DNA from: Candidatus Poribacteria bacterium
GTDB lineage: Bacteria; Poribacteria; WGA-4E; PCPOR2b
Direction: 5' to 3'
Assembly (NCBI GenBank): GCA_965208675.1
Contig: OZ242351.1
Span: 192,001 to 256,000 of the forward strand
Length of the DNA stretch: 64,000 nt
Shown: in pieces, positions 1 to 15,157 of the stretch
Numbering within the stretch: the first letter of the stretch is position 1
Layout of the letters: each line of letters opens with the position of its first letter
Translations under genes and position numbers: made by a program
The notes under the pieces: generated by a model
Told to the model about the DNA's origin: nothing
Seen by the model: the letters and a program-made list of their open reading frames with translations, nothing else
Databases searched by the model: none

Positions 1-1811
1 GTTGATTTGTGGGCATATACAATGGTTGCCACACCGTCGTGTTTTAAAACACGGTAGATTTCCTGAAAGGATTGCTTAAGTTTCTCCTCAAAAAAACACT
101 TCGCCGCGCTTTTTCCACCTTTTCGATATGGAGCAGACACTATTTCATTTGATTTAGGCGTTAACGGTGTTGAAAATAATTCTGGATACAAATTCCCTAC
201 CGTCCTTTTTAGCCAGACGTAAAAAAAATCGGACAAGCTAGCATACCCAATATTGTCGTAATACGGCGGATCTGTGAATGCAGCATCGAAGAAATTATCA
301 GGATAAGGAAGATTTGTAGCAGAGGACTGAGTGATTGTAGCCATGGCCGATGAACAAGAGTTGCCAATGTCTAATGGTTCTCTTATAGTTTCTATTGAGT
401 TAATCCAACTCGTGCTTATTTTCCCTAAGCAATTTACCTCAAAGTAATCGAAAACCATTGGTATTGCATTTCTACCACTAAACACATGTATGTTTTGTTC
501 CGATCCAACCTTCCATCTACAAAAGGATGTTGAAAACGAGGTTAATCTGTCTACTGCTAACGACAAATAACTCACCACTACTTTCGTATATTCCTCATGG
601 TATCCTTCGGTCACCATCTTTTGGCACACTATCTTGACTTTTTCAGCGAGAGTAATCAATGTAAGCTTCTGCCTTGAATTGAATAGTTGGCCCCATTCAT
701 TAAAGCCGTAACCCCTTCCTGCGACTGTGTCGGGGTTACTGGTGTTCATTTGCTCATTTGGCACTGAATCCAATCCCCATTCAGACGTCAACTGCTGCCG
801 TTTATCTGTAAGGAACGCCTTGGCGGATTCAAACACCGAAAGATCAAGATCCGTAACCACGCGATAAAGCTTTCCGGTTGTGCCCGGCTTGTGTGTTACA
901 ACGGCGATCATTCGTTCTCCCGCTTTCCCATCCTTAAACAACTGTCGTGTCAACTTCGCTTCTACGGTACCACGGCAGACAGGACACACCACCACAGCAC
1001 GTGAAACGGTGCCTTTAATCGGGTCAAAATTGTGGGGCACCGGTTCGTAACCATCGCCCACAATCTTGAAGTTTAATTCCTCATTGTCACTCAAAGGATA
1101 GAGTGAAACCTTCTTTTTGGGCTTATTCGCTAACCAGAAATGCCCCATTAGCGGAATTTCCGCCCCACACGACGGATTTTGACATGGAATCGTCCTCGCC
1201 CAGATCCACCCGACTGGGATTGAACCGTCGTTATCTTCTGGATAAAATCGCCCCAGTTCTCTTTTCGCCTCCGCAAGCACCCACGTACCCCATTTCTTGA
1301 CATCTTGGAACAAAGAATTTTGGGCTGGCTCGTTAAAATTAAGTTCTTCAGAGGCGCTTTTTATTGATCGTCCGAACTTCTGCGGGTATTGCAGCGTGCA
1401 CTTCTGAATCAGAACCGCAACAGGGTTGAGGTCGTTGGAATAGGTTTCACAGCCAAGCCGAAGCGCCTCCAGTGGAATTGCCCCGCCACCTCCAAAGGGA
1501 TCGAGAACTTTTGGAGGAACGCCTCCGTTGGCTTCGAGAATTTCTCTTCGTGCCGTTTCAATTATATTAGAGTTTAGTGAGTTTTCCCACTTTGAGAGAT
1601 CACTGATAAAATTCCGTTTCCTGTTCCAATCCTCGGTGTCTTTGGGCGGCGGAGTCAAGGCGGCGTAAGCGGTAGCGCGTGATGCGGCAAGTGGTCGCCG
1701 TGCCCACCAGAGATGGAGCTTTGAGATATGTCCGTATGGTGGAATCTTTTCATTAGCAGATTGCTCGCTGACTTCTTTGACGGGGAAACTCTCTTCAATG
1801 AAACGTTTCAT
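1..1811 (-). CDS. DUF1156-family adenine-specific DNA methyltransferase (3' end outside window)
   Basis: Manual translation from ATG at 1811: MKRFIEESFPVKEVS...HLWWARRPLAASRA (DUF1156 signature), LDPFGGGGAIP (SAM-binding), CQNPSC/CPVC zinc motifs, FTDPPYYDN (N6-adenine catalytic motif). Missing from the ORF track because it runs off the edge. Confidence 0.9.
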   Translation of the reverse strand, partial: MKRFIEESFPVKEVSEQSANEKIPPYGHISKLHLWWARRPLAASRATAYAALTPPPKDTEDWNRKRNFISDLSKWENSLNSNIIETARREILEANGGVPPKVLDPFGGGGAIPLEALRLGCETYSNDLNPVAVLIQKCTLQYPQKFGRSIKSASEELNFNEPAQNSLFQDVKKWGTWVLAEAKRELGRFYPEDNDGSIPVGWIWARTIPCQNPSCGAEIPLMGHFWLANKPKKKVSLYPLSDNEELNFKIVGDGYEPVPHNFDPIKGTVSRAVVVCPVCRGTVEAKLTRQLFKDGKAGERMIAVVTHKPGTTGKLYRVVTDLDLSVFESAKAFLTDKRQQLTSEWGLDSVPNEQMNTSNPDTVAGRGYGFNEWGQLFNSRQKLTLITLAEKVKIVCQKMVTEGYHEEYTKVVVSYLSLAVDRLTSFSTSFCRWKVGSEQNIHVFSGRNAIPMVFDYFEVNCLGKISTSWINSIETIREPLDIGNSCSSAMATITQSSATNLPYPDNFFDAAFTDPPYYDNIGYASLSDFFYVWLKRTVGNLYPELFSTPLTPKSNEIVSAPYRKGGKSAAKCFFEEKLKQSFQEIYRVLKHDGVATIVYAHKS

Positions 1812-2032
1812 TCCAGTTCCTCTTGTCCCATTTTTCGATTCTTAGCTAGTTTACGTAGCGCAGACTCGACCCTCCATTCTGACGCCTTTTCCTGAAGTTC
1901 AACCGAGGTATACTCACTTCGAAACTCTCCCAAGCCACCAATCCAACTTAATTTTGGCTTCTTTTGTCGCCGAAACTCCTCTTCAGTTGAGTAGGAATCT
2001 TGATTGCATTTATCAAAGACGTTAGATTTCAT
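1808..2032 (-). CDS. Small DUF2281-like protein (putative antitoxin-like)
   Basis: KPKLSWIGGLGEFRSEYTSVELQEKASEW resembles the DUF2281 C-terminal motif. Its TGA overlaps the methyltransferase ATG (ATGA). Start 2032 (MKSNVF) preferred over the ORF-track start 2131. Confidence 0.55.
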   Translation of the reverse strand: MKSNVFDKCNQDSYSTEEEFRRQKKPKLSWIGGLGEFRSEYTSVELQEKASEWRVESALRKLAKNRKMGQEELE

Positions 2033-2195
2033 AATGTGTATCCCGCCGCTTTTTGGTTCGTAGTAGCGCAATTCATTGCGCATTGGGTTAAGTGAAAAGT
2101 TGTCCTGCAATATACGGGCAAAGTATCGCATGCATTCGAGTCAGCGCGTTGTTTCTATACCGGCACGCGATCCACGACGTAATTTTAGGTGCATC

Positions 2196-4220
2196 TTAAG
2201 AAGCCCCGGTTTTTCCTTCGCCGAAAGCACTGCGAATCTCTTTGAAGAGCTTAATGGCTTTACACCGCGTTTCATCAGGCAACGCACTGGCATCGTTCAT
2301 ACCGCTAAGCTTTTTTTGCAATCGCTTTGCGATTGGTCCCTTGTTGATTTTAATATCTCTTTCGTTCATGAAACGCTCAACTCTTTTCCAGAGTATGTCA
2401 TTACCCTGTAACGTAATCTCTTCTACACCAGCGTTTGCAAGTTGTTTGCTGTAAGCATCTTTAACAATCTCCACAAAAAAATATTCAGGGAAAAGATCTT
2501 CAATCGCAAAATCACCACAGGCACTTACAGCATCGCCTAGTAGAATAACTTCGGTTTGATTCTTTTTATATCTCTCAAGCCACTGTTTAACGAGTTTATC
2601 CCGAGCACGTCTTCCCTCATCGTCAGAGTCAAACAAGGCAACCACGTTAAGATTCTGCCCAATCATAAAGGTCGTAATATGGACGGCGGGCGAGGCGCCA
2701 CCCCCCGCTGTAATAAGGACATCCTTTGGTAGAGCTTCCTCCCCATGTTGTTGGAGTAAGTTTGATAGCTCCGTGAGGATCCAGTAATCATCAACCCCCT
2801 CTACAACAAGATTGCGTTCGGCGACGAGAAAACTGTGTGAGGCATCCATTCCTAACGCCGCCTGAAGCACCAGTTTTGCTTCTGGTGGACTTTCCGTAAA
2901 GTTAGTTGTCACTACAATACCATTATCTGTTTCTGTCAATATTCGGATGCGGGCTGGGCAGTTGAGATCGATCATGAAGGGGAGATGTGTCGTATAGAGA
3001 AGCGTATTCCCCTTTGCATAGTGTTCAAGACGACGCAGTAGGTCTTTTTGAGCATCAGGATGAAGATGAAGCCCTGGTTCGTCCAGAAGAACGACACAGC
3101 CTTCAAACGTTCCTCCACTCTCATGCATAAACATGAGATCGAAGGAAAAAAACCACTGAAATCCTTTCGATCTTTCCTCTAGCCGAATGAGCGCTGGATC
3201 ATGATCGTCCTTTACGAAAGTGAAGAAACGCTGACCATCGGCACGGTATTCAACTTCATAGCGACGCTGACGAAGTCGATTCGAGATTTCACTCGTTAGC
3301 GTTGCGGCACCATCATCAAGATCTAATTGCCGTTGCTCAATTTGTTCCTCATTACCCTGCCCTAACTGAATCAGCTCGTCCAGGTCAAGAATAGATAAGC
3401 CAAGGATTGTTAAGAATGTGTTATCTGCGTCTGTGAGATGATTTTGGTCTTGTCGAGATTTAATCTCATCGAGCTGCGCGGTACCGCTGAAGGTCCTATA
3501 GTCGGACATATAGATAAAGGTGGGTAAATTATCGGTAATGTAATCGGCTGCTTCTAATCGGACAGAGGGTATTTGTTCAAGCGCAGGAACAACATTTTCA
3601 AGGCTAGAAAGGTACTGGTTCAAAAAATATTCCTCGATTTGCAGTGGTGGATCCGAAGGTGATAGCGAATCCTGCAACAACGCAGCGTGCTTTTCAGCTA
3701 TTTCACTCAACTCTACGAATTGCCCTTTAACAGCAAGGTGACACAATTCTTTTAGGCATTCCTCCGCGATTTCTTTGAAGCGGCCACCAAAGTCGTTTTC
3801 AATCTTGGGCACGCTTTCAAGAGCGTTATTGACGGATTTTGGGTCGAGTTCATGTAAGAAAATTCCCTCCGGGAAGTCTACCTCCAATTCCCCTGCATAA
3901 TTCCGTGAAACTTCCACAATATCTGGAAAGTTTTCCCGATTCGTAATTTGGGCGAGATAAGATTTCTCTTGGTCTGAAAGTCGAAAGCTTGCCCGACAGA
4001 CTTCTTGTTCTTCACTCCGCTCTCTTCGATGAGCACGAGGCCATTCCCTGTCCATCTGGTATTGATCCGGGCTGTAAGGGTTGAGTTTATGAAGTGCCTT
4101 CAGAAGGGAAGTCTTGCCCGACTCATTCTTACCGACTAGCACCGTTAGGGGATTCACGTCAACCCAGCCAGAATCACGAATTCCTTTGTACATTTTTACA
4201 CGAAAGGCAATTAGGTCCAT
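2196..4220 (-). CDS. OLD-family ATP-dependent nuclease (ABC ATPase + TOPRIM)
   Basis: Walker A GKNESGKTS, signature ERSKG, Walker B/D-loop LLDEPGLHLHP, H-loop YTTH, TOPRIM VVEGVDD and ALFDSDDEG, late IEDLF. Confidence 0.88.
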   Translation of the reverse strand: MDLIAFRVKMYKGIRDSGWVDVNPLTVLVGKNESGKTSLLKALHKLNPYSPDQYQMDREWPRAHRRERSEEQEVCRASFRLSDQEKSYLAQITNRENFPDIVEVSRNYAGELEVDFPEGIFLHELDPKSVNNALESVPKIENDFGGRFKEIAEECLKELCHLAVKGQFVELSEIAEKHAALLQDSLSPSDPPLQIEEYFLNQYLSSLENVVPALEQIPSVRLEAADYITDNLPTFIYMSDYRTFSGTAQLDEIKSRQDQNHLTDADNTFLTILGLSILDLDELIQLGQGNEEQIEQRQLDLDDGAATLTSEISNRLRQRRYEVEYRADGQRFFTFVKDDHDPALIRLEERSKGFQWFFSFDLMFMHESGGTFEGCVVLLDEPGLHLHPDAQKDLLRRLEHYAKGNTLLYTTHLPFMIDLNCPARIRILTETDNGIVVTTNFTESPPEAKLVLQAALGMDASHSFLVAERNLVVEGVDDYWILTELSNLLQQHGEEALPKDVLITAGGGASPAVHITTFMIGQNLNVVALFDSDDEGRRARDKLVKQWLERYKKNQTEVILLGDAVSACGDFAIEDLFPEYFFVEIVKDAYSKQLANAGVEEITLQGNDILWKRVERFMNERDIKINKGPIAKRLQKKLSGMNDASALPDETRCKAIKLFKEIRSAFGEGKTGAS

Positions 4221-4277
4221 AGGAAAATCTCAACTCTCCCAGATTCGTTATATTTTGTCGATATATCCTCTACACCG

Positions 4278-7200
4278 TCAGCGCAAATGGATTTCCTCAT
4301 TGCATTTTACCCCTTTTTTCTGAATTTCATCCAGAGAGATCAGATGCCGAACCACTTCAATCTGCTCTTCAGGGTGCGTCTCCTCGGCTGGGTTCTGGAT
4401 TGTGTACAGGACAGGCTGCGTTCTTGCGTTGAGTACGGCGTAAAGGAAATAGTCCGATTTGAACTGCTTGGCTTTGAACCACTCATTTTGCGTCAAAGAC
4501 ACGGCGCCAAGCCCGGCTCGCGCTTTGACTTCGATATACCGTTTCACCCCTCCCTTATCTGTTGAGCGGACATCGAAACCCAGGTTATCGGAGGAAACGT
4601 CTTCGGGCGTGCGTCCATATTGCCGTTCGTACCCCATCGCCACCTCCATGCCGATGCGCTCAATTTCCGGATCGCTTTTCATGGCTGAAGTTTCAGTTGG
4701 CGCGGGAATTACCCGGATCGCACCGAGGTAATTGGGCGTACTCTGGGTCAGGTTGCCTTCTTGGGCAGTGGTTAGTTCTAACGTTTTGAGGCTATCTTCG
4801 TAATCCTGCTTCTTTTCCTCCTTGTTGCGCACGAGGCGATCGACATTTTCACCCTTCTCGCGGCGCTCATAGAGCGAAATCAAATCGCTGTCCAGTTGGA
4901 GGATGAGGTAGTTAAGCGACTTGAGTCCATACTTCTCTTTAATCGCCGCCTGCCGTTTCCGTTCAACTGTAAGTTCGTCCTTATAAGCCCGAAGCACAGG
5001 TATTATATCAGGCATGACTATGGCTTTCAAGCCATCAGTGTCTTCCGATGCGACTTGCTGTGAACTTTCCGCTAGGTCCCAGATAACTGTGGGGTCAATA
5101 GGTTCGACCATTTTTGTATCGGTGCTCACATAGAAAGCAAACAGCCGCGCCCCTGCAACCTGCCCCTTGCCGTCGCGAATCTCGCCCTCATAGAACAGGA
5201 TGACGCCGTCCCAACTCCCGTCGGGGTCCTCAAAAACCGCCCCTTGTGTCAGGTTGTCCGTGAGGTTTTCATCCACCCAACCGAGCACGGCTTCAAACAC
5301 TGGATGACCAAAGGAGATGAACTCCGCGTCCGGGTTTCTGAACGCGAGTTCTTTTTCGAAAGTGGCTTTCGGATAAGATTTCATTATCCCGCCGTGTTTC
5401 CGCTTGAAGGCATCTTTTTCGGCAATCCTGCGAATCGGCACCGGAATCCTTTCAATTGCTAGAAATCCATCGCGTCGGTCTCGCAGCCTTCCGTTGAACG
5501 GCGCGACGGCTTTTCGGAAAAAGGCTTCCGTATATTCAGGAATCAGACGCCTTTCCCGTGCGCGTTCCGCCATCTCTCCGAGTCGAGTGTAGTCGATGTA
5601 ACGCGTGGCAAGGCTTTCGCCCAAGTTTTCTTTGACTTCGGCAATGTAATTTTCATTTACTTCAATGTTAATTTCTGCGAGAATCTCTTCGGTGCTCTTT
5701 GCGTTGGCTGCCGCCTCTAGCATTAGGTGATTGAGATTCACGTCGTATAACACTTCGTTCAACACGTCGAACACTTTGTCGCTTCCCAGGGCGTTTTTGA
5801 TCTCGTCAATCTTCTGAAAAAGCGCCGTCATCACCTCGCCTTCTCGCGTGTCCTTGGCGACGAGGTTATAGACGAATACCTCGCGCGTCTGGCCGTAGCG
5901 GTGGATTCGCCCCATGCGTTGTTCCAGGCGGTTGGGATTCCACGGCAGATCGTAGTTAATCATCAGGTGGCAGAACTGAAGATTGATGCCTTCACCAGCA
6001 GCTTCCGTGGCAATCATAATCTGGCTTTGGTTTTTGAATTCGCTCTCCGCCTCAATCCGCTCTTCGAGTCTCAATCCGCCGTGAATCACCGTGACGGTAT
6101 ATCCCCAACCCTCCATTTTGCGCTGAAGGTATGCCAAAGTATCCCTCGATTCGGTGAAGATGAGGATTTTTTCCCCGCGGAAACGATCCTCCAAATCGTC
6201 CAGCGTCCGCTTTAACTCTCCAAGTTTGAGTTCGCTTTCGTCATCAATTATCGTCCTCGCCAAATCAGCCAAGGTTTCAAGCGTTTCAATTTCGCGTTCC
6301 AGTTCCTCTCGATTTTCGGCGACAGAAAGCGTCTCCCAAATCTCCTCCTCCTTCCACCGTTCCTCCTCGCTCAAATCGTCGATGGTCTCAAAATCGTGGA
6401 CGTATTCCGTTCGTTTTCTTTCGACGGCGCCTTCCAACAATTCGCAGAGGCGCACTCGCCGCCGCTTCAGCGAAGTAAGCAGTGCATAGGTGCTTGACGC
6501 GAGTCGGCGCTGCAGGATAACGAGCGCAAACGCCACGTTGTTCCGTTTGTCCTTAGTCAGCGCCTTATTATATTGGCTATGAACATACTTGGAAAGCGCG
6601 TTGTAGAGTTCCATTTCGTGCGGAGAATCAACGCCGAGGTTGAAAGGAAGCGTCGTGACGTGCCGGGGCAAAAACAGCGGTTTACCCTCAAAATCCTTCA
6701 AATCTTCTTTCACCCGGCGGATAAAGAGCGGATTGTCCCCCGCCGTGACGGATTCACGTAAATCTTGACTGGTGGCGAAGAAGCCCGGTTCAAGCAGATC
6801 CAGGAACAATCGAAAATTCTCAGGGTCGCCCTTGTGCGGCGTAGCGGTGAGGAAGAGGAGATGGGTTGCTGATTTTGATAGCATCTCGCCCAGCCGATAA
6901 CGACTCGTCTTGTCGAGTTTATCGCCGTACTGGTACGCCGCCATCTTGTGCGCCTCATCTACAATAACCAGATCGAAGGGGGCTGACGCAATTGCGGGCA
7001 TGACATCGTCGCGTTTGGCAAAATCAATGGAGGTGATAATCTGGGACTCGCGGCTCCACGGATTTTCACCGGGTACCGAATCGAGAACGGCGCGATCCAT
7101 AATACGGAAACTCTCTTCAAACCGCTCCTTCAATTCCCTTCGCCACTGGTCTTTGAGATGCCCTGGCGCGACAATCAGTGTCCGGGAAATCAGATGACGG

Positions 7201-7625
7201 AGTTTTAACTCCTTGATAATAAGCCCCGCCATAATCGTCTTGCCGGCGCCCGGGTCGTCGGCAATCAGGAACCGGATGCGCGGCAGCTTGAGCACATGAC
7301 CGTAGACTGCCTCCACCTGATGTGGCAGCGGATCCACCTTAGAGGCGCTGACCGCGAAAAGCGAATCGTAGAGCGCTGCATTGCGGTAACGCCGCGCTTC
7401 AAGGCTGAGGAACACGTCCCGCGCCTTTGCCTTGAAGTCGAGCGAGACTTTCCCAACCTGCAACTCGTTCACTTCGTCGCGGGTGAGCATGGCGTCAATA
7501 TGATCTCGCGAATTGACGGTTGAGCCAACCAATCGGATGTATTCCCCAATCTCTTCCACGAGATCGATTTTCACCGGCTCGGGCCAATGATGGGATTCTA
7601 TGATGTCTCCGCTTTTAATGTTCAT
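4278..7625 (-). CDS. SNF2-family helicase with C-terminal DUF3883 PD-(D/E)xK nuclease
   Basis: LIADDPGAGKT, VDEAHK, LTATP, ATEAAGEGINLQ, PWNPNRLEQRMGRIHRYGQ; C-terminal GFDVRS...YIEVKAR. Confidence 0.93.
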   Translation of the reverse strand: MNIKSGDIIESHHWPEPVKIDLVEEIGEYIRLVGSTVNSRDHIDAMLTRDEVNELQVGKVSLDFKAKARDVFLSLEARRYRNAALYDSLFAVSASKVDPLPHQVEAVYGHVLKLPRIRFLIADDPGAGKTIMAGLIIKELKLRHLISRTLIVAPGHLKDQWRRELKERFEESFRIMDRAVLDSVPGENPWSRESQIITSIDFAKRDDVMPAIASAPFDLVIVDEAHKMAAYQYGDKLDKTSRYRLGEMLSKSATHLLFLTATPHKGDPENFRLFLDLLEPGFFATSQDLRESVTAGDNPLFIRRVKEDLKDFEGKPLFLPRHVTTLPFNLGVDSPHEMELYNALSKYVHSQYNKALTKDKRNNVAFALVILQRRLASSTYALLTSLKRRRVRLCELLEGAVERKRTEYVHDFETIDDLSEEERWKEEEIWETLSVAENREELEREIETLETLADLARTIIDDESELKLGELKRTLDDLEDRFRGEKILIFTESRDTLAYLQRKMEGWGYTVTVIHGGLRLEERIEAESEFKNQSQIMIATEAAGEGINLQFCHLMINYDLPWNPNRLEQRMGRIHRYGQTREVFVYNLVAKDTREGEVMTALFQKIDEIKNALGSDKVFDVLNEVLYDVNLNHLMLEAAANAKSTEEILAEINIEVNENYIAEVKENLGESLATRYIDYTRLGEMAERARERRLIPEYTEAFFRKAVAPFNGRLRDRRDGFLAIERIPVPIRRIAEKDAFKRKHGGIMKSYPKATFEKELAFRNPDAEFISFGHPVFEAVLGWVDENLTDNLTQGAVFEDPDGSWDGVILFYEGEIRDGKGQVAGARLFAFYVSTDTKMVEPIDPTVIWDLAESSQQVASEDTDGLKAIVMPDIIPVLRAYKDELTVERKRQAAIKEKYGLKSLNYLILQLDSDLISLYERREKGENVDRLVRNKEEKKQDYEDSLKTLELTTAQEGNLTQSTPNYLGAIRVIPAPTETSAMKSDPEIERIGMEVAMGYERQYGRTPEDVSSDNLGFDVRSTDKGGVKRYIEVKARAGLGAVSLTQNEWFKAKQFKSDYFLYAVLNARTQPVLYTIQNPAEETHPEEQIEVVRHLISLDEIQKKGVKCNEEIHLR

Positions 7626-7678
7626 GGAAAATGGTTACCTCATTTGATACTATTGAAATCATCAGGTGTATCGCTTCC

Positions 7679-7764
7679 GCCTAACCACACGCGTAAACGG
7701 TGACACTGAACGACCAAAACCGCGATCGGTCTTTAATTTGGATCTCAACTGAGTACTGTTGGGT
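7679..7764. other. Degenerate attC-like recombination site
   Basis: On the minus strand, 7 nt after the upstream gene's stop: ACCCAAC (RYYYAAC) ... GTTAGGC (GTTRRRY), 86 bp, with a central GACC..GGTC inverted repeat. L boxes pair poorly. Confidence 0.3.
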
Positions 7765-7771
7765 TTGGCGT

Positions 7772-8932
7772 CTATGACAAATAAAAATATATCTGATCAA
7801 GGGCTAAAAGCGCCTGTAATGCTTTGACTGATGTATAATCTTCCTCGGCTGCAGCACCATGTGCAACGCTGTGCCTTGATACGTCAACCATACCCGTTTC
7901 AAGATTGAATTGTGTAAAAACGCTGCCGTTGAGATAATTCAAAAACATTCCGGGAAAGAGTAGCGACTGGCTGTCGCTCGCGACTCGCTGTTGTCCAACG
8001 TCCGTCAGATGGAGTATCAATTCTTTCAGCTTTACCCCATCGCCCTTTCCTGTGTCCTTAAAATACGCATAACGCATGACTCCTTCAATTTCGGTATAAA
8101 GGGTCTTAATGCAGTTTATAAAACCGCTTTCAGTCCCTTGCTGAAAAGCATCAATACCTGCTTGCAGCAGATGTTGCTTTTCCTGAAAAATGCAATTTTC
8201 CCACCACTTTTCAGTCATTCTTCTCACGCGTGATTCATCGAATGAATCAAGCAGTGCCCCTACCGTATCATCGTAAGTGAATTTCTCATTCTCATAGGTG
8301 CCGGCTAATGTTTTGTAGTCGTTTCCTAGAATTTCAATGAAGGGAAACCACCCATCTTTTAGCATTTCTTCAAATTGCGTTTCTGATTCTAGGCTTTGAT
8401 ACACATACTGAAAACTTAAGGTCCTATAAAGCCTCCCTAGGTTAACCTGCATTGACGCAATATCAAATCCGTTAGCAGGGCCTAGTAAGTTAAAATACAG
8501 TCCGAATTTCCAGCCGACTTTTAAGCAACAGATAACGCTGTCGTGTTCTTGTATTGCTACACCCGGAAACCTCACCTGTCGAATATCTGCAATATCGCTT
8601 TCTGTGACAACTGTTCCCGATTCTATACTGCGCTTGGATAGCATCTCTATCTCCATGGGAAAATCATTGATATAAATATGTGCGCTCAAATCAGGGTGAA
8701 TTAGTATCAGAAAACTATGGATATCATTGACGTTTAATAGGCGTTCTTTACCATCAAGGTGAAACCTAAGACCATTCAAATAGGTGCTTGATAGCTGCTC
8801 TATAAATCTGTAAAAATTTGCATCGTCGGACGTGAGACTGGCAGACGCCAATGCGTAGAAATAGTGTTCTTTAGGGACGTTGCAAACCGTAAACCCGGTT
8901 AGACTTTTGACCTTGTCAACGATTAGTCGCAT
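7772..8932 (-). CDS. Hypothetical protein with C-terminal HEPN-like RxxxxH motif
   Basis: 386 aa ORF, GGAGG RBS, AT-richer than neighbours; IEGVMR helix and SRHSVAHG followed by a terminal helix. Confidence 0.65.
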   Translation of the reverse strand: MRLIVDKVKSLTGFTVCNVPKEHYFYALASASLTSDDANFYRFIEQLSSTYLNGLRFHLDGKERLLNVNDIHSFLILIHPDLSAHIYINDFPMEIEMLSKRSIESGTVVTESDIADIRQVRFPGVAIQEHDSVICCLKVGWKFGLYFNLLGPANGFDIASMQVNLGRLYRTLSFQYVYQSLESETQFEEMLKDGWFPFIEILGNDYKTLAGTYENEKFTYDDTVGALLDSFDESRVRRMTEKWWENCIFQEKQHLLQAGIDAFQQGTESGFINCIKTLYTEIEGVMRYAYFKDTGKGDGVKLKELILHLTDVGQQRVASDSQSLLFPGMFLNYLNGSVFTQFNLETGMVDVSRHSVAHGAAAEEDYTSVKALQALLALDQIYFYLS

Positions 8933-9075
8933 GACTTTTTATTTGCCTCCTATTCAATAAATATCTGTTTCACTTCCTTGCCAATCAATCTTTTAAGCCC
9001 GTGTTCCTTAGCTGTTCCGTTGGCGGGAAAGAGGCGACATCACCTGAGGATTCACTCTTACCTACCCCAAAATAC

Positions 9076-9105
9076 AAAAAAAGCCCCGCTTGATGACGAG
9101 GCTTT
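9076..9105 (-). terminator. Rho-independent terminator after rpmA
   Basis: Minus strand AAAGCCTCG-tcatcaag-CGGGGCTTT followed by a T tract. Confidence 0.8.
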
Positions 9106-9135
9106 GAGTTTGGATAATCCGATTGGAATATGCGG

Positions 9136-9402
9136 TTAGAAATCTGGGCGTTCTGCGTAGACGCTGACTTTTCTGCGGTATTTGTCCTTCCGCTCAAACC
9201 AGACGTAGCCGTCAATCTTTGAGAAGAGCGTATAGTCGCTCCCAAGCCCGACGTTCGTGCCCGGATGAAGGTGCGTCCCACGCTGCCGAACGAGGATGCT
9301 TCCTGCTGTCACGTGGTTTCCAGCGAAACGCTTCACGCCAAGTCGTTTGCCGCAGCTATCCCGCCCATTACTTGTACTTCCGCCGCCTTTTTTATGCGCC
9401 AT
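9136..9402 (-). CDS. rpmA: 50S ribosomal protein L27
   Basis: [34 protein letters not shown]. Confidence 0.98.
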
Positions 9403-9745
9403 TTTCTGCTGCCTCCTCGGGGCTATGTTCTTGTTGAATTTCAGTGATTCGTAATCGAGTCAATCTCTGCCGGTGTCCGAGCTTACGTTTGTAGCCTTTT
9501 CGTCTCTTTGATTTGAAAACAACAATCTTCTTCGCTTTTCCCTGCTCAACAACCTCTCCAATTACGGCGGCTTTTTCCAAATAAGGCTCCCCAACCTGCA
9601 GATCGCCTTCGCCGTCTCCAATCGCTAATACTTCCGGGAACGTAACAATTTCGCCTACGGGAACTTCAACCTTTTCAACATCAATCAGTGTCCCCACTTC
9701 AACGCGATGCTGTTTTCCACCGGCGGCAAATACAGCGTACATCAC
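9392..9745 (-). CDS. rplU: 50S ribosomal protein L21
   Basis: [14 protein letters not shown]...[16 protein letters not shown]; precedes and overlaps rpmA. Confidence 0.97.
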
Positions 9746-12021: not shown

Positions 12022-13596
12022 TTAAGTTCCTTTGCGCGGCGTCATTGTGATTACCGGAATGATTAACTCGCTAGGTGAAATCCCGCCGTGCTGGAAGCCG
12101 CCGCGAAACTGTCGCGTATATTCATGATACTGATTTGGATAGACAAAATAGTAATCTTCCTTCGTTATAATATAGTTTTTACTTGAACCCTCAGCGGGTA
12201 ACCTATATTCATTCGGATGCGCGATGTGTATAGCTTGATCTCTATTGCACCCGAGGTTCGTACCGACTTTGAAACGAAGGCTTGTGGACGTTTCGCGATT
12301 TCCAAGCGCTTTAGTAGGTCTATTGCAAAGAACGGAACCGTGGTCAGAGGTTAGGACGACGGTGGCGTTTCGGGTTGCAATAATCTTCAAGACCTCAAAG
12401 AGCGCGGAATGGGCGAACCATGATTTTGCCAGTGAACGAAAGGCAGATTCATCCGGTGCTATTTGCTGAAGTACATTTGACTGTGAACGTTGATGGGTTA
12501 ATATATCAATGAAGTTAACGACCAGAGCAGATAAACTGATTTGGTCGAAAGACGAAACTTGACGTAAAAACTCGTTGCCTCCCTTGGCGTCAAATATCTT
12601 GAAATACCTAATTCCTGGTTTAAGGTTCAGCCCGGCTCTTTGAAGCTTTTGTTGAAGGAGCTGTTTTTCATACCGATTCGTACTGGTTTCGTCTTCTGAG
12701 TTTTCCTGCCAATATTGCGGGAATTTCTTTGCAATCTCTTGAGGAAATAAACCGCTAAATAGTGCATTGCGAGAGTAGAGCGTTGCACTAGGCAAGATTG
12801 AGAAGTAAAAATCCCGATTGGTATAAAAATAGGGCCGAATCAGCGGCTCAATCGCCATCCAATGGTCGAGCCTGAGACAATCAACAACAATAAAATAGGT
12901 GGGTCGTTTTCCGCGTAGATGTGGGATGACAAAATTATCTAACACATCCACAGATAAAATTGGCGAGTTTTCCCCTTTTAACCAGCGGGTATAGTCTCGC
13001 GAAACATAGTCCGAAAATGAAGCATTACACTCCTTTTTTAGCTCTACGTGAGTTTCTTCAAGGCCTGTTTGTCCCAATTGATCGAATTCGAGATCCCATT
13101 CGACCAATTTCAGATAAATTTCAATCCACTTGCGCCAATCCGGGGCGGTCTCTTTTGTGTGTCGAATCTGATCGAAATCGTGCGTGTAGTTGCGGGGTAC
13201 TTGTCCTTCTGCAATCTTTGTCTGGTCTAGAACACGTTTCAAGGTAAGAGCGACCTGCGCTGCCCCGATTGGTTTCACCAGAAAATCGCTAATCCGTTTC
13301 CCCAACGCCTCATTAACTACCTGATCATCATGGCATTGTGTTAGCATTACCACGGGCAAGGTCGGGTCAATCGCGCGGATGCGGTCCAATGCTGCTAAGC
13401 CGTCCTGCCCAGGCATCATCTGGTCAAGTAAAACCACATCATACCGCTGATTATTGAGCAGTGAAATTGCATCGTCCCCGTTGGACACAGAGGTGACATC
13501 ATAAGACTTTTCATTCAGAAAAAGGATGTGGGGTTTCAGGGCATCAATTTCATCATCAACCCATAAAATTTTGTGAGCGATATTTTGCATTAACAA
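12022..13596 (-). CDS. Response regulator with receiver and PglZ/alkaline-phosphatase-fold domain (PorX-like)
   Basis: ILWVDDEID..LLDQMMPG receiver; VVDCLRLD, SILPSATLYSRNALFSG, TSDHG, FQHGGIS phosphodiesterase motifs. Confidence 0.9.
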   Translation of the reverse strand: MLMQNIAHKILWVDDEIDALKPHILFLNEKSYDVTSVSNGDDAISLLNNQRYDVVLLDQMMPGQDGLAALDRIRAIDPTLPVVMLTQCHDDQVVNEALGKRISDFLVKPIGAAQVALTLKRVLDQTKIAEGQVPRNYTHDFDQIRHTKETAPDWRKWIEIYLKLVEWDLEFDQLGQTGLEETHVELKKECNASFSDYVSRDYTRWLKGENSPILSVDVLDNFVIPHLRGKRPTYFIVVDCLRLDHWMAIEPLIRPYFYTNRDFYFSILPSATLYSRNALFSGLFPQEIAKKFPQYWQENSEDETSTNRYEKQLLQQKLQRAGLNLKPGIRYFKIFDAKGGNEFLRQVSSFDQISLSALVVNFIDILTHQRSQSNVLQQIAPDESAFRSLAKSWFAHSALFEVLKIIATRNATVVLTSDHGSVLCNRPTKALGNRETSTSLRFKVGTNLGCNRDQAIHIAHPNEYRLPAEGSSKNYIITKEDYYFVYPNQYHEYTRQFRGGFQHGGISPSELIIPVITMTPRKGT

Positions 13597-13642
13597 CTCA
13601 CCCCTTTTTCCCTTTTATCCTTCAAATTTAGGGAAGCCTCAA

Positions 13643-15157
13643 CTAGATTTCTTCTCGTTTCTCGCCGGATATTGTCCCGATTGGCAGTACAATTTCGAAC
13701 GTTGTTCCATCAGGCCCGGTGTCGACTAACCGGATTTTCCCATGATGGTGCGTCTCGACAATACGCTTGACAAGCGTTAATCCAAGCCCCCAACCGTGTT
13801 TCTTGGTTGTTACGCCGGGGTGAAAAATTTTTCGGCGGTCTTTCCGCACAATCCCCTTGCCGTTGTCCGTGTATCGAATAATGATGCGACGGTTCTTCTC
13901 ATCAAATCTCGGATCGATTTCGATTAAACCGCTCGGTTTGTCGAGGGCGTCGAGCGAATTGCGAATCAGGTTCTCAAAAACCCATTGCATAAGTTCTGCA
14001 TTGGCGAAGACGTATGGAAGTTCACTAGCCGCGACCCTGATGTCAACCGATTTGTTGCGATTGGGCAAGCGTTTTTGATAATAGGAAACGACATCGCCAA
14101 TCACTTCGTTGACGTTGACCTCCGTTTTTTGCGGTTCCGATCCAATCTTCCCAAAACGTGCCGTGATTTTCTGCAATCGGACGATGTCGTTATGCACATT
14201 TTCATAGATGCCGTTAACGGTAGCGTCGTCCTTTTCCCGATTTCGACTGGTCAACAACTCCAACCATCCCATCAACGAGGATATTGGCGTTCCCAGTTGA
14301 TGTGCGGTTTCCTTGGTGAGACCGCCCCAGAGCGCCGCCTGTTCACTAAATCTTATACGCCGATAGGTCAGAAATCCAACACCCAAGAATGTTGCAAACA
14401 CAGTTATTAAGACTATCGGCATAATCATAATGCCAAGATAACGCGTCGATTCGTAATAAAAATAACCCTTACGCAAGTCAGGTGTGGTCTGCAGCGGCAC
14501 CTCGCGTCCCAACACTTTGGAGCTCTGCACCAGTTTTTCAGCCCGTGCCAACTGTTCCGGTGTAGCATGCTTGGCAGTAATTAAGTCGCCGCCCCAGATT
14601 CGCCACATCTGCGGTTTCCGGTTCAAATCCGTCACGACAAAGGGAACCTGTTCTATCGCTGTCACATCGGCGTCGCCATGAAAAAAATAGGCAGAAAGTT
14701 CGCGATTTTCTAAGCTGTATTGAATGGACACCGGTCCATTCTTCCTCTCCATCCGGTCCAATGCGTCTTTGAGTTTGACTTGCTCGACGGGGGATAACGC
14801 AATTGACGGCTCGGTGTTGACTTTTTGGTCGATTGCTTCATCAACGCCCTTGGCAATCACAACTTCCCCGTTATCTGCATCTGTAATGATGAACGATAGA
14901 CGGCTTACCGTCAATAACTGCTTAACTATTTGCGTCAATCCATCTTGAAGTTCTCTGTCCTTCACCTCGGGTAATGTCGCCGCAAGGTGTGCCAACGGTC
15001 CGACCTGTTCATTCAACGCTCGATCTAGCTGGAGAATCTGTCTGGTATAATACACGAAGGCGAGCGACAGAATGAGTAGCCCAACGATAAAGTACGCTAA
15101 CAGGAATCTCGTCGTGGCGTACCCAGTCGGCACAATCCTTTTGCGCTTGAACAGCAT
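13643..15157 (-). CDS. Membrane sensor histidine kinase
   Basis: Two TM segments, ETAHQLGTPISSL H-box, ENLIRNS, DNGKGI, GWGLGL. Confidence 0.92.
   Translation of the reverse strand: MLFKRKRIVPTGYATTRFLLAYFIVGLLILSLAFVYYTRQILQLDRALNEQVGPLAHLAATLPEVKDRELQDGLTQIVKQLLTVSRLSFIITDADNGEVVIAKGVDEAIDQKVNTEPSIALSPVEQVKLKDALDRMERKNGPVSIQYSLENRELSAYFFHGDADVTAIEQVPFVVTDLNRKPQMWRIWGGDLITAKHATPEQLARAEKLVQSSKVLGREVPLQTTPDLRKGYFYYESTRYLGIMIMPIVLITVFATFLGVGFLTYRRIRFSEQAALWGGLTKETAHQLGTPISSLMGWLELLTSRNREKDDATVNGIYENVHNDIVRLQKITARFGKIGSEPQKTEVNVNEVIGDVVSYYQKRLPNRNKSVDIRVAASELPYVFANAELMQWVFENLIRNSLDALDKPSGLIEIDPRFDEKNRRIIIRYTDNGKGIVRKDRRKIFHPGVTTKKHGWGLGLTLVKRIVETHHHGKIRLVDTGPDGTTFEIVLPIGTISGEKREEI

Follow-up and report, generated by a model that had tools for sequence, protein, structure and literature searches.

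Class 1 OLD proteins are defined by gene context, i.e., by a stand-alone gene in variable neighborhoods and with no dedicated partner, in the accounts of the class that we follow (PMC10568477; PMC12796447). In the OLD protein of Thermus scotoductus (Ts OLD), a four-helix dimerization domain is inserted in the ATPase, and roles have been assigned to mutagenized metal-ligand residues including E377, D381, D431 and D433 (PMC7049728). A review from 2023 listed broad phage defense by stand-alone OLD proteins as a question (PMC10568477). Since then, anti-phage activity or phenotypes have been reported for OLD proteins that act solo, i.e., Vc OLD of Vibrio cholerae (PMC12392090) and YbjD of E. coli, and Vc OLD, a bacterial Class 1 protein, is reported to nick DNA and to block phage replication (PMC12392090).

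Related modules have also been described inside larger defense loci. BREX and DUF499-centered systems are reported to contain TOPRIM-linked OLD-ABC modules (PMC12839542), and genes were reported to be embedded in 62.7% of 1,485 Hma systems (10.1101/2024.01.29.577857). Hma, for helicase, methylase and ATPase, is also named the Type-1 DUF499-centered BREX-related system. According to the same preprint, HEC-04, a fusion of ATPase and TOPRIM, is by itself sufficient to protect E. coli, and it loses this activity upon mutation of Walker A or the TOPRIM metal site; no protection was seen in Payne's assays with HEC-01, in which the ATPase and the TOPRIM protein are separate (10.1101/2024.01.29.577857). 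Both the embedding of OLD-type ATPase-TOPRIM proteins in Hma, BREX and restriction-modification (RM) loci and the idea of a "backup effector" have been published before (Payne 2024 preprint; NAR 2026).

Here, we describe an OLD gene that lies within an Hma system of a Candidatus Poribacteria bacterium. Because a guest gene inside Hma is a published pattern, this gene is a further example of it. We argue that it probably encodes a real, autonomous defense nuclease.

Results

The OLD gene is embedded in an Hma system

The window, i.e., the whole stretch of 64,000 nucleotides analyzed here, contains the OLD gene close to its start (Table 1), at C1:194196-196220 on the contig. HmaA matches PADLOC model PDLC00659 with an E value of 2.1e-201 over residues 3-1091 of 1,115 and has the Pfam families Helicase_C, SNF2-rel_dom, ResIII and NOV_C. 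hmaB extends past the window start to G000:C1:191133, and the HmaC model matches two adjoining ORFs there (6.8e-94 and 2e-26). hmaA is the first gene of the system, and HmaA, HmaB and HmaC are encoded together on one strand and in the published order. With HmaA and HmaB as neighbors and HmaC just beyond the window, the OLD gene is thus embedded in an Hma system. The first-pass annotation had placed the gene in a helicase-methylase operon; a helicase and a methylase do flank it, but the known three-gene Hma system had gone unrecognized.

Table 1. Features of the OLD gene and of the surrounding Hma locus. Positions are those of the window unless a contig is given.
Feature	Position	Strand	Description or evidence
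OLD gene	2196..4220	(-)	Open ORF, 674 aa; single-chain ABC ATPase and TOPRIM nuclease
Walker A (P-loop), residues 30-37	4110..4133	(-)	GKNESGKT, with K36; G30, N32, G35 and K36 invariant, n=60
Helical insert in ATPase fold, about residues 120-313	3282..3863	(-)	Mostly helical; secondary structure of AlphaFold model
ABC signature R350-Q355, Walker B D380/E381, H-loop H412	2985..3173	(-)	Columns invariant or at least 90% conserved
TOPRIM core (E474, D478, D531-S-D533, E574-D575), then C-terminal helical domain	2226..2816	(-)	Alignment to Ts OLD and domain model
hmaA	4278..7625	(-)	SNF2-type helicase with C-terminal NOV_C (PD-(D/E)xK-like) nuclease domain; PADLOC PDLC00659
hmaB, first 603 of 892 aa	3..1811	(-)	DUF1156 DNA methylase; PADLOC PDLC00661 1.1e-107, Pfam DUF1156
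hmaC	G000:C1:187112-189645, just outside the window	same as hmaA and hmaB	DUF499 ATPase; PADLOC PDLC00662
107-aa ORF in 384-base spacer between OLD gene and hmaB	1808..2131	(-)	No Pfam family; chance-level PADLOC match

The OLD gene is single copy, with one full match in the whole genome. Its GC content is 0.454 and its GC3 0.425 in a genome with a GC content of 0.492, compared to 0.523 and 0.613 for hmaA, 0.477 and 0.496 for hmaB, and a GC3 of 0.57-0.62 for hmaC. The gene is therefore AT-richer than the helicase gene, as had been noted from the sequence. It shares its orientation with hmaA and hmaB, starts 57 bases after the hmaA stop codon, and is probably co-transcribed with the Hma system. 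A promoter scan gave 17 promoter-like sites (shuffles: mean 10.2, sd 2.7), and a terminator scan gave 11 terminator-like sites (shuffles: 11.0), i.e., no excess; in these scans, no promoter- or terminator-like site set the OLD gene apart as its own transcription unit.

The shared strand and tight spacing would also suit an OLD protein that is an integral fourth subunit, the nuclease effector, of this Hma subtype rather than a guest, and the whole cassette hmaA-OLD-hmaB-MNT-hmaC recurs in L007, from a genome of Ca. Poribacteria, with proteins that are 59-76% identical to those here. We nevertheless consider such a subunit highly improbable. HmaA has its own NOV_C nuclease domain, and its nickase activity is reported to be essential (PMC11232893). 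The composition of the OLD gene is unlike that of hmaA and hmaC. The genome holds three Hma loci, and the other two lack this gene, the second having Menshen and PDC-M71 between hmaA and hmaB. Finally, in a screen of 80 related loci with up to 10 kb on each side, only three had Hma parts on both sides, and these used two different slots: hmaA/hmaB in L007, hmaB/hmaC in L016, and hmaA/hmaB together with other guest genes in L027.

A one-base shift in front of four consecutive C splits hmaC in the assembly. Decay of the Hma system was considered as an explanation and was dropped because contigs of runs X1 and X7 have one extra C at the split (it is absent in X5 and X6) and because the frame, with a placeholder base at this position, is open for 844 aa. 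The split is likely an assembly error. In the sponge metagenome runs X5-X7, hmaB and the OLD gene are covered at far lower depth than hmaA and hmaC. Single contigs of X6 and X7 bridge the OLD gene (L103 7111 or 7015 to 9407); their short sides are 41 and 36 letters long, with unknown letters between. These signals are too weak to posit a variant that lacks the gene.

The 107-aa ORF in the spacer was rejected as a partner gene. It belongs to no family, has no tblastn match in the 80 related loci and no Atlas match, and a REP-like palindromic element at 2059-2083 lies on its opposite strand. Neither L007 nor L012 has a conserved spacer, and in both of them the same palindromic element is present with its orientation reversed. 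The spacer is also where contigs of run X1 break off. The 107-aa ORF is probably not a gene.

The ATPase and TOPRIM halves are conserved

Across an alignment of 60 family members, comprising homologs at 26-76% identity, G30, N32, G35, K36, S351, G353, D380, E381 and H412 are invariant. S351 and G353 belong to the signature sequence RSKGFQ, and D380 and E381 to the Walker B sequence LLDEPGLHLHP; the stretch from the signature to the H-loop aligns to Ts OLD from residue 274 onward. Pfam assigns AAA_15 and AAA_21 to the ORF, and the ATPase part superposes on the heads of PtuA, SMC and Rad50 with Z scores of 17-19. The invariance of the Walker A, signature, Walker B and H-loop residues among the 60 proteins bears out the earlier reading of the ATPase motifs as complete. 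The long helical insert seen in that reading is likewise present in the full-length AlphaFold model (pLDDT 86.3), with mostly helical structure at about residues 127-313. We infer that this insert is the counterpart of the dimerization insert of Ts OLD, but longer.

In the TOPRIM half, the same alignment shows at least 90% conservation at E474, D478, D531 and D533 and no variation at E574. By profile alignment, the first four correspond to E377, D381, D431 and D433 of Ts OLD. The motifs had been described as complete, and this description holds in that the metal-binding residues are kept and align to those of Ts OLD; the Pfam TOPRIM models are silent, with no TOPRIM family found on the OLD ORF at E≤0.01, and the assignment comes from profile and structure comparisons.

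The models have about 100 residues of helices after E574. For the domain model of the C-terminal region (pLDDT 90.5), all five best Foldseek matches and the four best VIA rows are C-terminal regions of OLD proteins. The best matches are Class 2 structures, i.e., residues 391-594 of 6nk8_B (Z 11.3, rmsd 3.3, 164 aligned) and 6njw (Z 11.2), compared to a Z of 8.3 with 138 aligned residues for Ts OLD. Because the helical domain after the TOPRIM core is absent from Ts OLD, the C-terminal region is closer to the Class 2 structures. K627 in this helical domain is nearly invariant and, judged from spacing only, may be the counterpart of Bp K562.

The OLD protein belongs to Class 1 by gene context

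The class was assigned from HMM, profile-to-PDB and fold comparisons. Among solved proteins, the sequence profile ranks Ts OLD first (6p74, 3e-20), followed by PtuA (3e-11) and GajA (1e-3). 6p74 is also the best Foldseek match of the whole model (E 4e-13) and the sole top VIA row to cover both domains (model residues 2-668, Z 18.4, 352 aligned, rmsd 15.5). Together with the conserved motifs, the first rank of 6p74 by both profile and Foldseek confirms the first-pass view of an OLD-type single-chain ATPase-TOPRIM protein.

Several lines of evidence bear on the class. First, the contexts of the 80 related loci vary; after clustering of 404 neighbor ORFs, no family was found in more than eight loci, and thus no conserved partner emerged. 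By gene context, the OLD protein is Class 1. The absence of helices after the TOPRIM core, a trait of Ts OLD that lies outside the class definition, is not shared by the OLD gene product. Second, Pfam searches of 20 nearby ORFs (10 in the window and 10 in the adjoining stretch) gave neither a UvrD-type family, as in Class 2 (Gabija), nor a reverse-transcriptase family, as in Class 3 (retron effectors, which also have a retron non-coding RNA beside them). The earlier statement that no GajB or reverse-transcriptase partner is nearby thus stands. Third, for Class 4 (PARIS), the AriA model PDLC02979 matches at 1.4e-17 but over the ATPase only, the AriAB model PDLC02981 matches at 4e-12 with its best stretch limited to residues 374-417, and solved AriA matches by profile at 2.5e-7 over residues 362-414. 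Fourth, HEC-04 was tried and rejected as an assignment: its PADLOC model PDLC04149 (494 positions) gave 18 weak matches in the genome at E≤1, none of them at C1:194196-196220, and it is not among the best 25 of 120 PADLOC matches. The best PADLOC matches on the OLD protein are partial, at about 1e-17, and its family lacks a dedicated model in PADLOC, NCBIfam and Pfam. The OLD protein is not HEC-04, GajA or PARIS.

Relatives are widespread and recur in defense operons

The family is large, with 769 cluster representatives at E≤1e-30 in a search of 1.84 billion representatives. Relatives are present on 97 plasmid records, and in the plasmid records inspected they are labeled only as "AAA family ATPase". 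A quick tree of the family has near-identical proteins in different phyla and relatives scattered patchily across many phyla, and the Hma-embedded members fall in at least three separate places, needing at least three changes. Some relatives are broken, with 14 stops in L013, nine in L015, and one each in L012 and L028. We show here that this family has spread by gene transfer. The OLD gene itself looks independently acquired, as the first-pass annotation had proposed, based on its low GC3, the different Hma slots, the occurrence in Type I RM operons and the at least three places in the tree.

These observations also bear on whether the protein could be a housekeeping or domesticated OLD ATPase without a role in defense. 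Some OLD proteins are reported in cell-cycle or chromatin roles, e.g., archaeal Cran1 (PMC12796447). Patchy distribution, near-identical proteins in unrelated phyla, relatives on plasmids, broken copies, location in defense operons and atypical composition all argue against such a role, which we regard as hardly plausible for this gene.

Beyond the three Hma loci, Type I RM parts are present on both sides in 7 of the 80 loci, Hma or Type I parts on one side only in 13, and neither in 57. When only the 45 loci that extend 5 kb or more to each side are counted, the corresponding numbers are 3 for Hma, 6 for Type I on both sides, 8 for one side and 28 for none. The gene is preceded by hsdM and hsdS and followed by hsdR in L022, L059, L070 and L073; L024 matches these four in its sides, and in L071 the upstream gene is hsdS and the downstream one hsdR. 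Type IIG, Type III or C5 methylases adjoin the gene in L008, L009, L054 and L055. A PADLOC defense protein (E≤1e-10) lies within two genes in 14 of 30 loci and in none of the other 16. Given these 16 loci, and the 57 of 80 without an Hma or Type I part, the association with defense genes is frequent but not universal. One recurrent neighbor received the PADLOC labels "Aga_SIR2" and "pAgo"; these labels were rejected, because Pfam identifies Schlafen AlbA_2 and HATPase_c_4 (with a deaminase N-terminus in L022). This Schlafen-type neighbor adjoins the OLD gene in 9 of the 80 loci and, therefore, is not a general partner.

Discussion

Altogether, we favor, with a probability of about 0.78, a model whereby the product of the OLD gene is an OLD-family nuclease, of Class 1 as judged from context, that acts autonomously against phages, and whereby the gene has inserted into the Hma system as a guest. 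By analogy to characterized OLD proteins, we infer the role in defense, the DNA substrate and the oligomerization. In this model, the OLD protein would probably form dimers or higher oligomers via its helical insert, and the ABC heads, by binding and hydrolyzing ATP, would gate the C-terminal TOPRIM domain. This domain would hold two metal ions, with E474, D531 and D533, and D478 and E574, as predicted ligands, and would nick or degrade DNA during infection. The functional outcome would be that replication of the phage genome is blocked or that the infected cell is killed. Alternatively, the substrate could be tRNA, as reported for AriB, the TOPRIM nuclease of PARIS (PMC12409363).

In another model, the OLD protein would be a guard or backup effector whose function is coupled to the restriction system around it, in the way that PrrC is coupled to EcoprrI. 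It would be latent while Hma or Type I RM is intact, and a phage anti-restriction protein would activate it by disabling the host system or mimicking its substrate. Relatives have Hma or Type I RM on both sides in 10 of the 80 loci and on one side in 13 more, several occupy the hsdS/hsdR slot (L022, L059, L070, L073, L024 and L071) and others lie beside methylases (L008, L009, L054 and L055); here, the gene has the orientation of hmaA and hmaB and follows hmaA by just 57 bases. Precedents are described in PrrC with Stp and PARIS with Ocr (10.1101/2024.01.29.577857), and a "backup effector layer" has been proposed (PMC12839542). We nonetheless judge such coupling to be unlikely. The 57 of 80 loci without an Hma or Type I part include 28 of the 45 that extend 5 kb or more to each side, and because the host system varies by locus (Hma, Type I and others), a single specific protein-protein guard interface is unlikely. 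Moreover, other Hma-embedded candidates are reported to work without Hma in E. coli (10.1101/2024.01.29.577857), and an insertion hotspot, or "genomic sink", can by itself explain embedding (10.1101/2024.01.29.577857; PMC11232893). The trigger suggested in the first-pass annotation, inhibition of the surrounding system, is for this class an already published hypothesis, as set out in two sources (10.1101/2024.01.29.577857; PMC12839542).

A more specific version can be formulated, in which the clade of 670-aa OLD proteins would be specialized in guarding methylation-based restriction. Like a PrrC with a TOPRIM domain, it would reside in the hsdS/hsdR slot and between Hma genes, would be silenced by the intact complex, and would fire on DNA or tRNA once a phage anti-restriction protein disables the complex. 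We hold this version to be doubtful. If it were true, the mixed build of the protein, with Class 1-like sequence, a Class 2-like C-terminus and an extra-long insert, would be an adaptation for sensing. Because the clade recurs in Hma and Type I RM operons, it is a convenient test case for whether guests are independent passengers or backups. For the window, the outcome is mostly one of annotation: an OLD nuclease is embedded in one of the three Hma loci of the genome.

Compared to the autonomous nuclease that we favor, the described Class 1 proteins, i.e., phage P2 Old, Ts OLD (6p74) and Vc OLD, are likewise single-chain ABC ATPases with a helical insert and, at the C-terminus, a TOPRIM domain, encoded by stand-alone genes in variable neighborhoods without a helicase or reverse-transcriptase partner. 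Differences are also evident. Ts OLD has 528 residues rather than 674 and a shorter insert, lacks the helical domain after the TOPRIM core that is present here (PMC7049728), and is only about 14-20% identical to the OLD protein in structural alignments. While Class 1 genes were described as not proximal to other defense genes in the 2023 review (PMC10568477), the OLD family described here is often embedded in defense operons. GajA, of Class 2, also combines an ABC ATPase and a TOPRIM domain in one chain, and the Class 2 C-terminal structures 6nk8, 6njv, 6njw and 6njx are those most like the TOPRIM and helical domains of the OLD protein. Gabija differs in that the UvrD/PcrA/Rep-like neighbor GajB is missing here and in that the GajA models match partially, at 5e-15, and the solved chains at 1e-3.

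PARIS and PrrC couple an ABC-type ATPase to a nuclease, as does the OLD protein; the AriA and AriAB models match just its ATPase core. PrrC has an anticodon-nuclease domain rather than a TOPRIM domain, and in the prr locus it occupies the slot between hsdS and hsdR. OLD relatives sit between hsdS and hsdR, and PrrC is reported as embedded between Type I RM genes; PARIS and PrrC are both described as precedents for activation by anti-restriction proteins (10.1101/2024.01.29.577857). HEC-04 is the same fusion of ABC ATPase and TOPRIM and is likewise reported as Hma-embedded, but it belongs to another family, is shorter, and has its catalytic residues at K62, E319, D375 and D377 compared to K36, E474, D531 and D533 here (10.1101/2024.01.29.577857). 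With respect to Hma itself, the OLD gene is not a core component; it is a guest between hmaA and hmaB, and guest genes are reported in 62.7-66.5% of Hma loci (10.1101/2024.01.29.577857; PMC11232893).

The OLD gene is intact and carries conserved ATPase and TOPRIM motifs

The open frame between hmaA and hmaB, present as one copy in the host genome, is a real and intact gene for a 674-residue ATPase-TOPRIM protein. Its product matches the OLD-type ATPase families AAA_15 (residues 1 to 417, 5e-16) and AAA_21 in Pfam. Two alignments were built, one of 32 close database homologues (59 to 76% identity) and one of 60 sequences, including 46 proteins from related genomic loci at 26 to 67% identity. 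In the latter, the invariant positions are G30, N32, G35 and K36 of Walker A, S351 and G353 of the signature, L378 to H387 of Walker B (with D380 and E381), H412 and E574; conservation is at least 90% at E474, D478, D531, D533, D575 and K627. By far the best match of the 60-sequence profile among solved structures is 6p74, the Class 1 OLD nuclease of Thermus scotoductus (Ts OLD; 3e-20), with E474, D478, D531 and D533 paired with Ts E377, D381, D431 and D433; PtuA-type ATPases rank second at 3e-11, matching through the ATPase core only, and GajA reaches 1e-3. The conserved motifs and the Ts OLD match with its paired residues confirm the first-pass annotation, which had described complete ABC ATPase and TOPRIM motifs, and its remark that the gene is AT-richer than the helicase gene is borne out by GC3 values of 0.425 versus 0.613.

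The full-length AlphaFold model (60-row alignment, pLDDT 86.3, pTM 0.68) predicts an ABC head, a mostly helical insert in that head at approximately residues 127 to 313, and a four-stranded alpha/beta TOPRIM core from approximately residue 469, behind which comes a helical stretch of ∼100 residues. In Foldseek, the top hit of this model is 6p74 (4e-13). By VIA, PtuA chains reach a Z score of 19, limited to residues 1 to 460 of the model, and 6p74 reaches 18.4 with 352 aligned residues over 2 to 668, the high rmsd of 15.5 arising because the domains are posed differently. The separately folded C-terminal domain (residues 440 to 674; 47 rows, pLDDT 90.5) best matches the C-terminal regions of Class 2 OLD proteins, i.e., 6njx, 6njv, 6nk8 and 6njw in Foldseek (3-6e-4) and, by VIA, 6nk8_B (Z 11.3, rmsd 3.3, 164 aligned, chain residues 391 to 594) and 6njw (Z 11.2), followed by Ts OLD (Z 8.3, 138 aligned) and GajA (Z 8.1). 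Class 2 proteins have a C-terminal helical domain that Ts OLD reportedly lacks (PMC7049728); the product of the OLD gene has one. E574 and K627 are 53 residues apart, compared to 54 between Bp E508 and Bp K562 (PMC7049728), and K627 may be the counterpart of Bp K562.

The surrounding operon is a three-gene Hma system

Features of the Hma locus and of related loci in the host genome (plain numbers, window; C1, host contig G000:C1; L103, extended stretch of the same locus)
Feature	Coordinates	Position	Description
OLD gene	2196-4220 (-)	between hmaA and hmaB	674 aa
hmaA	4278-7625	upstream of OLD gene	PADLOC 2.1e-201; SNF2 helicase and NOV_C domains
hmaB	3-1811, runs off window	downstream of OLD gene	DUF1156 methylase; 1.1e-107
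IS200/Y1-transposase-like ORF	C1:190370-190999	after hmaB, beyond window start	209 aa
97-aa ORF		after IS200/Y1-transposase-like ORF, beyond window start	
PDC-S09		after 97-aa ORF, beyond window start	minimal nucleotidyltransferase
hmaC		after PDC-S09, beyond window start	DUF499 ATPase
hmaC frameshift	C1:~188514 (L103:1614)	just before run of four C	one base
REP-like element	2059-2083	spacer after OLD gene	GGTTCGTAGTAG arm and short hairpin
Contig junction (X6, X7)	L103 7015-9407 (window ~2015-4407)	spacer to hmaA end	skips OLD gene
386-aa ORF	7772-8932 (-)	directly upstream of hmaA	low GC (0.42)
Hma island flanks	9392-9745 and C1:183632-185032		one side: gene for ribosomal protein L21, RNase E/G; other side: obg, glutamate-5-kinase-like gene (AA_kinase and PUA domains)
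Receiver-PglZ fusion and histidine kinase	12022-15157 (-)	next to each other	fusion 524 aa; kinase 504 aa
Second Hma locus	C1:2016299-~2034600		
Third Hma locus	C1:3201761-~3212500		

Because HmaA and HmaB flank the OLD gene and HmaC follows beyond the window, what was first seen as a helicase-methylase operon is the three-gene Hma system outlined by Payne et al. 2021 (PMC8565338) and renamed the Type-1 DUF499-centred BREX-related system in a 2026 paper (PMC12839542). In the assembly, hmaC is broken by a one-base shift. Apart from one extra C at this site, contigs from public sequencing run X1 show no difference over 1,897 bases, and contigs from sponge metagenome run X7 agree with them; contigs from runs X5 and X6 have no extra C. 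A placeholder base gives an open frame of 844 residues. Thus, the Hma system is probably intact, and the split in hmaC probably stems from a homopolymer error in the assembly.

The genes rplU, rpmA and obg adjoin in many bacteria; the Hma island may, therefore, have split this conserved cluster. The 386-aa ORF may be a further island gene; Pfam, PADLOC and NCBIfam gave no family for it, and its Atlas matches are all "hypothetical protein" clusters (best score, 0.98). Farther along, PglZ, a domain otherwise known from BREX, occurs in a fusion protein with a response-regulator receiver domain.

The spacer between the OLD gene and hmaB contains a REP-like element with a conserved arm, which lies near the IS200/Y1-transposase-like ORF and is found in the opposite orientation in the related Poribacteria loci L007 (about 12055 to 12085) and L012; its 16-mers occur four times in the host genome. 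A 107-aa ORF overlying this palindrome was not counted as a gene, having no family, no Atlas match and no homologue in the 80 related loci. Single contigs from X6 and X7 join the spacer to the hmaA end and skip the OLD gene, but their matching sides are short, at 36 to 41 letters, and the sequence between them consists of undefined letters.

Two further Hma loci are present in the host genome. The second holds a complete Menshen system (NsnA, NsnB, NsnC) and PDC-M71A/B between hmaA and hmaB, and the third has a hypothetical 286-aa gene in the same slot.

Relatives are widespread and found in varied contexts

The family is large: of 8,000 candidates scored in a word-indexed search, 3,400 proteins passed E≤0.001, an exhaustive search of 1.84 billion representatives gave 769 at E≤1e-30, and a species-genome collection held 506 confirmed relatives in 600 matched stretches. 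The nearest relatives are from Candidatus Poribacteria genomes (63 to 68%); others are from Nitrospirota, Verrucomicrobiota, Planctomycetota, Myxococcota, Pseudomonadota, Bacillota, Chloroflexota and more. Proteins of different phyla are near neighbours on a maximum-likelihood tree of 47 rows from a quick search, and Hma-embedded members require at least three changes of state.

The best 80 loci of the species-genome relatives were screened by tblastn with Hma and Type I restriction-modification (RM) proteins; 45 of them have at least 5 kb on each side. Hma parts lie on both sides in 3/80 loci (L007, L016, L027; 3/45 in the subset) and Type I RM parts in 7/80 (L019, L022, L024, L059, L070, L071, L073; 6/45). 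Parts of either system are on one side only in 13/80 (8/45), and 57/80 (28/45) have neither. The insertion slot also varies, being hmaA/hmaB in the host genome and L007 and hmaB/hmaC in L016. A PADLOC scan of 110 neighbouring proteins, two genes per side at 30 loci, detected defence proteins at 14 of these loci but not at the other 16, and clustering of 404 neighbour ORFs yielded no family common to more than eight loci.

These contexts bear on the suggestion in the first-pass annotation that the trigger may be inhibition of the surrounding system. Such a trigger is possible and has already been proposed: Payne et al. 2024 (10.1101/2024.01.29.577857) discuss it with PrrC/EcoprrI and PARIS/Ocr as precedents. 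That relatives recur at the hsdS/hsdR location would fit a guard of the host restriction system; however, the many loci without any Hma or Type I RM system and the variety of host systems argue for autonomy, and we consider a guard function unlikely. By contrast, independent acquisition, also proposed at first, is supported by a GC3 far below that of hmaA, the differing slots and the changes on the tree. We suggest that the product is most likely a horizontally mobile, stand-alone OLD nuclease, and that its gene most likely landed at a site between Hma genes that is known as an insertion hotspot and is now carried along with the cassette, as L007 has the same layout with proteins 59 to 76% identical.

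The commonest neighbour is a Schlafen AlbA_2 plus HATPase_c_4 protein (410 to 572 aa), which lies within ∼10 kb in 9/80 loci (L022, L027, L054, L055, L059, L064, L070, L071, L073), usually immediately downstream of the OLD-like gene; most of these loci are in Type I RM operons, and the L022 version has a deaminase N-terminus instead. The Schlafen-type protein is itself a known guest in such systems (PMC12839542).

Relatives at ∼28 to 30% identity are found on 97 plasmid records and two phage records. On the Enterobacter and Vibrio plasmids NC_016515.1 (L101 6505-6990) and NZ_AP025485.1 (L102 6480-6989), which carry ∼29%-identity relatives, a hypothetical gene of ∼165 aa stops 10 to 12 bases short of the ATPase gene; its products on the two plasmids share 56% identity, and the arrangement may be a two-gene variant of the OLD-like family. 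Matched stretches with 14 stops (L013), nine (L015) and one each (L012, L028) could reflect decay or errors in metagenome-assembled genomes.

Comparison with known OLD systems

Class 1 is defined by context (PMC10568477 and PMC12796447): the gene stands alone, in neighbourhoods that vary, and by this definition the OLD gene product is Class 1. Class 2 is placed within Class 1 in PMC12796447, which fits the mixed structural features described here. By analogy with Ts OLD (PMC7049728), the protein would form ATP-controlled oligomers in which the TOPRIM site cuts DNA by two-metal catalysis and, as outlined for Vibrio cholerae OLD (PMC12392090), might nick DNA and block phage replication. A tRNA substrate, cleaved as by the PARIS nuclease, is less likely. 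The 2026 BREX paper describes TOPRIM-linked OLD-ABC modules, present in at least 1,242 taxa, as a backup effector layer (PMC12839542). Altogether, the OLD gene follows a published pattern and is an unremarkable example of it, from a clade that is uncharacterised yet widespread and that combines Class 1 and Class 2 features in a somewhat unusual way.
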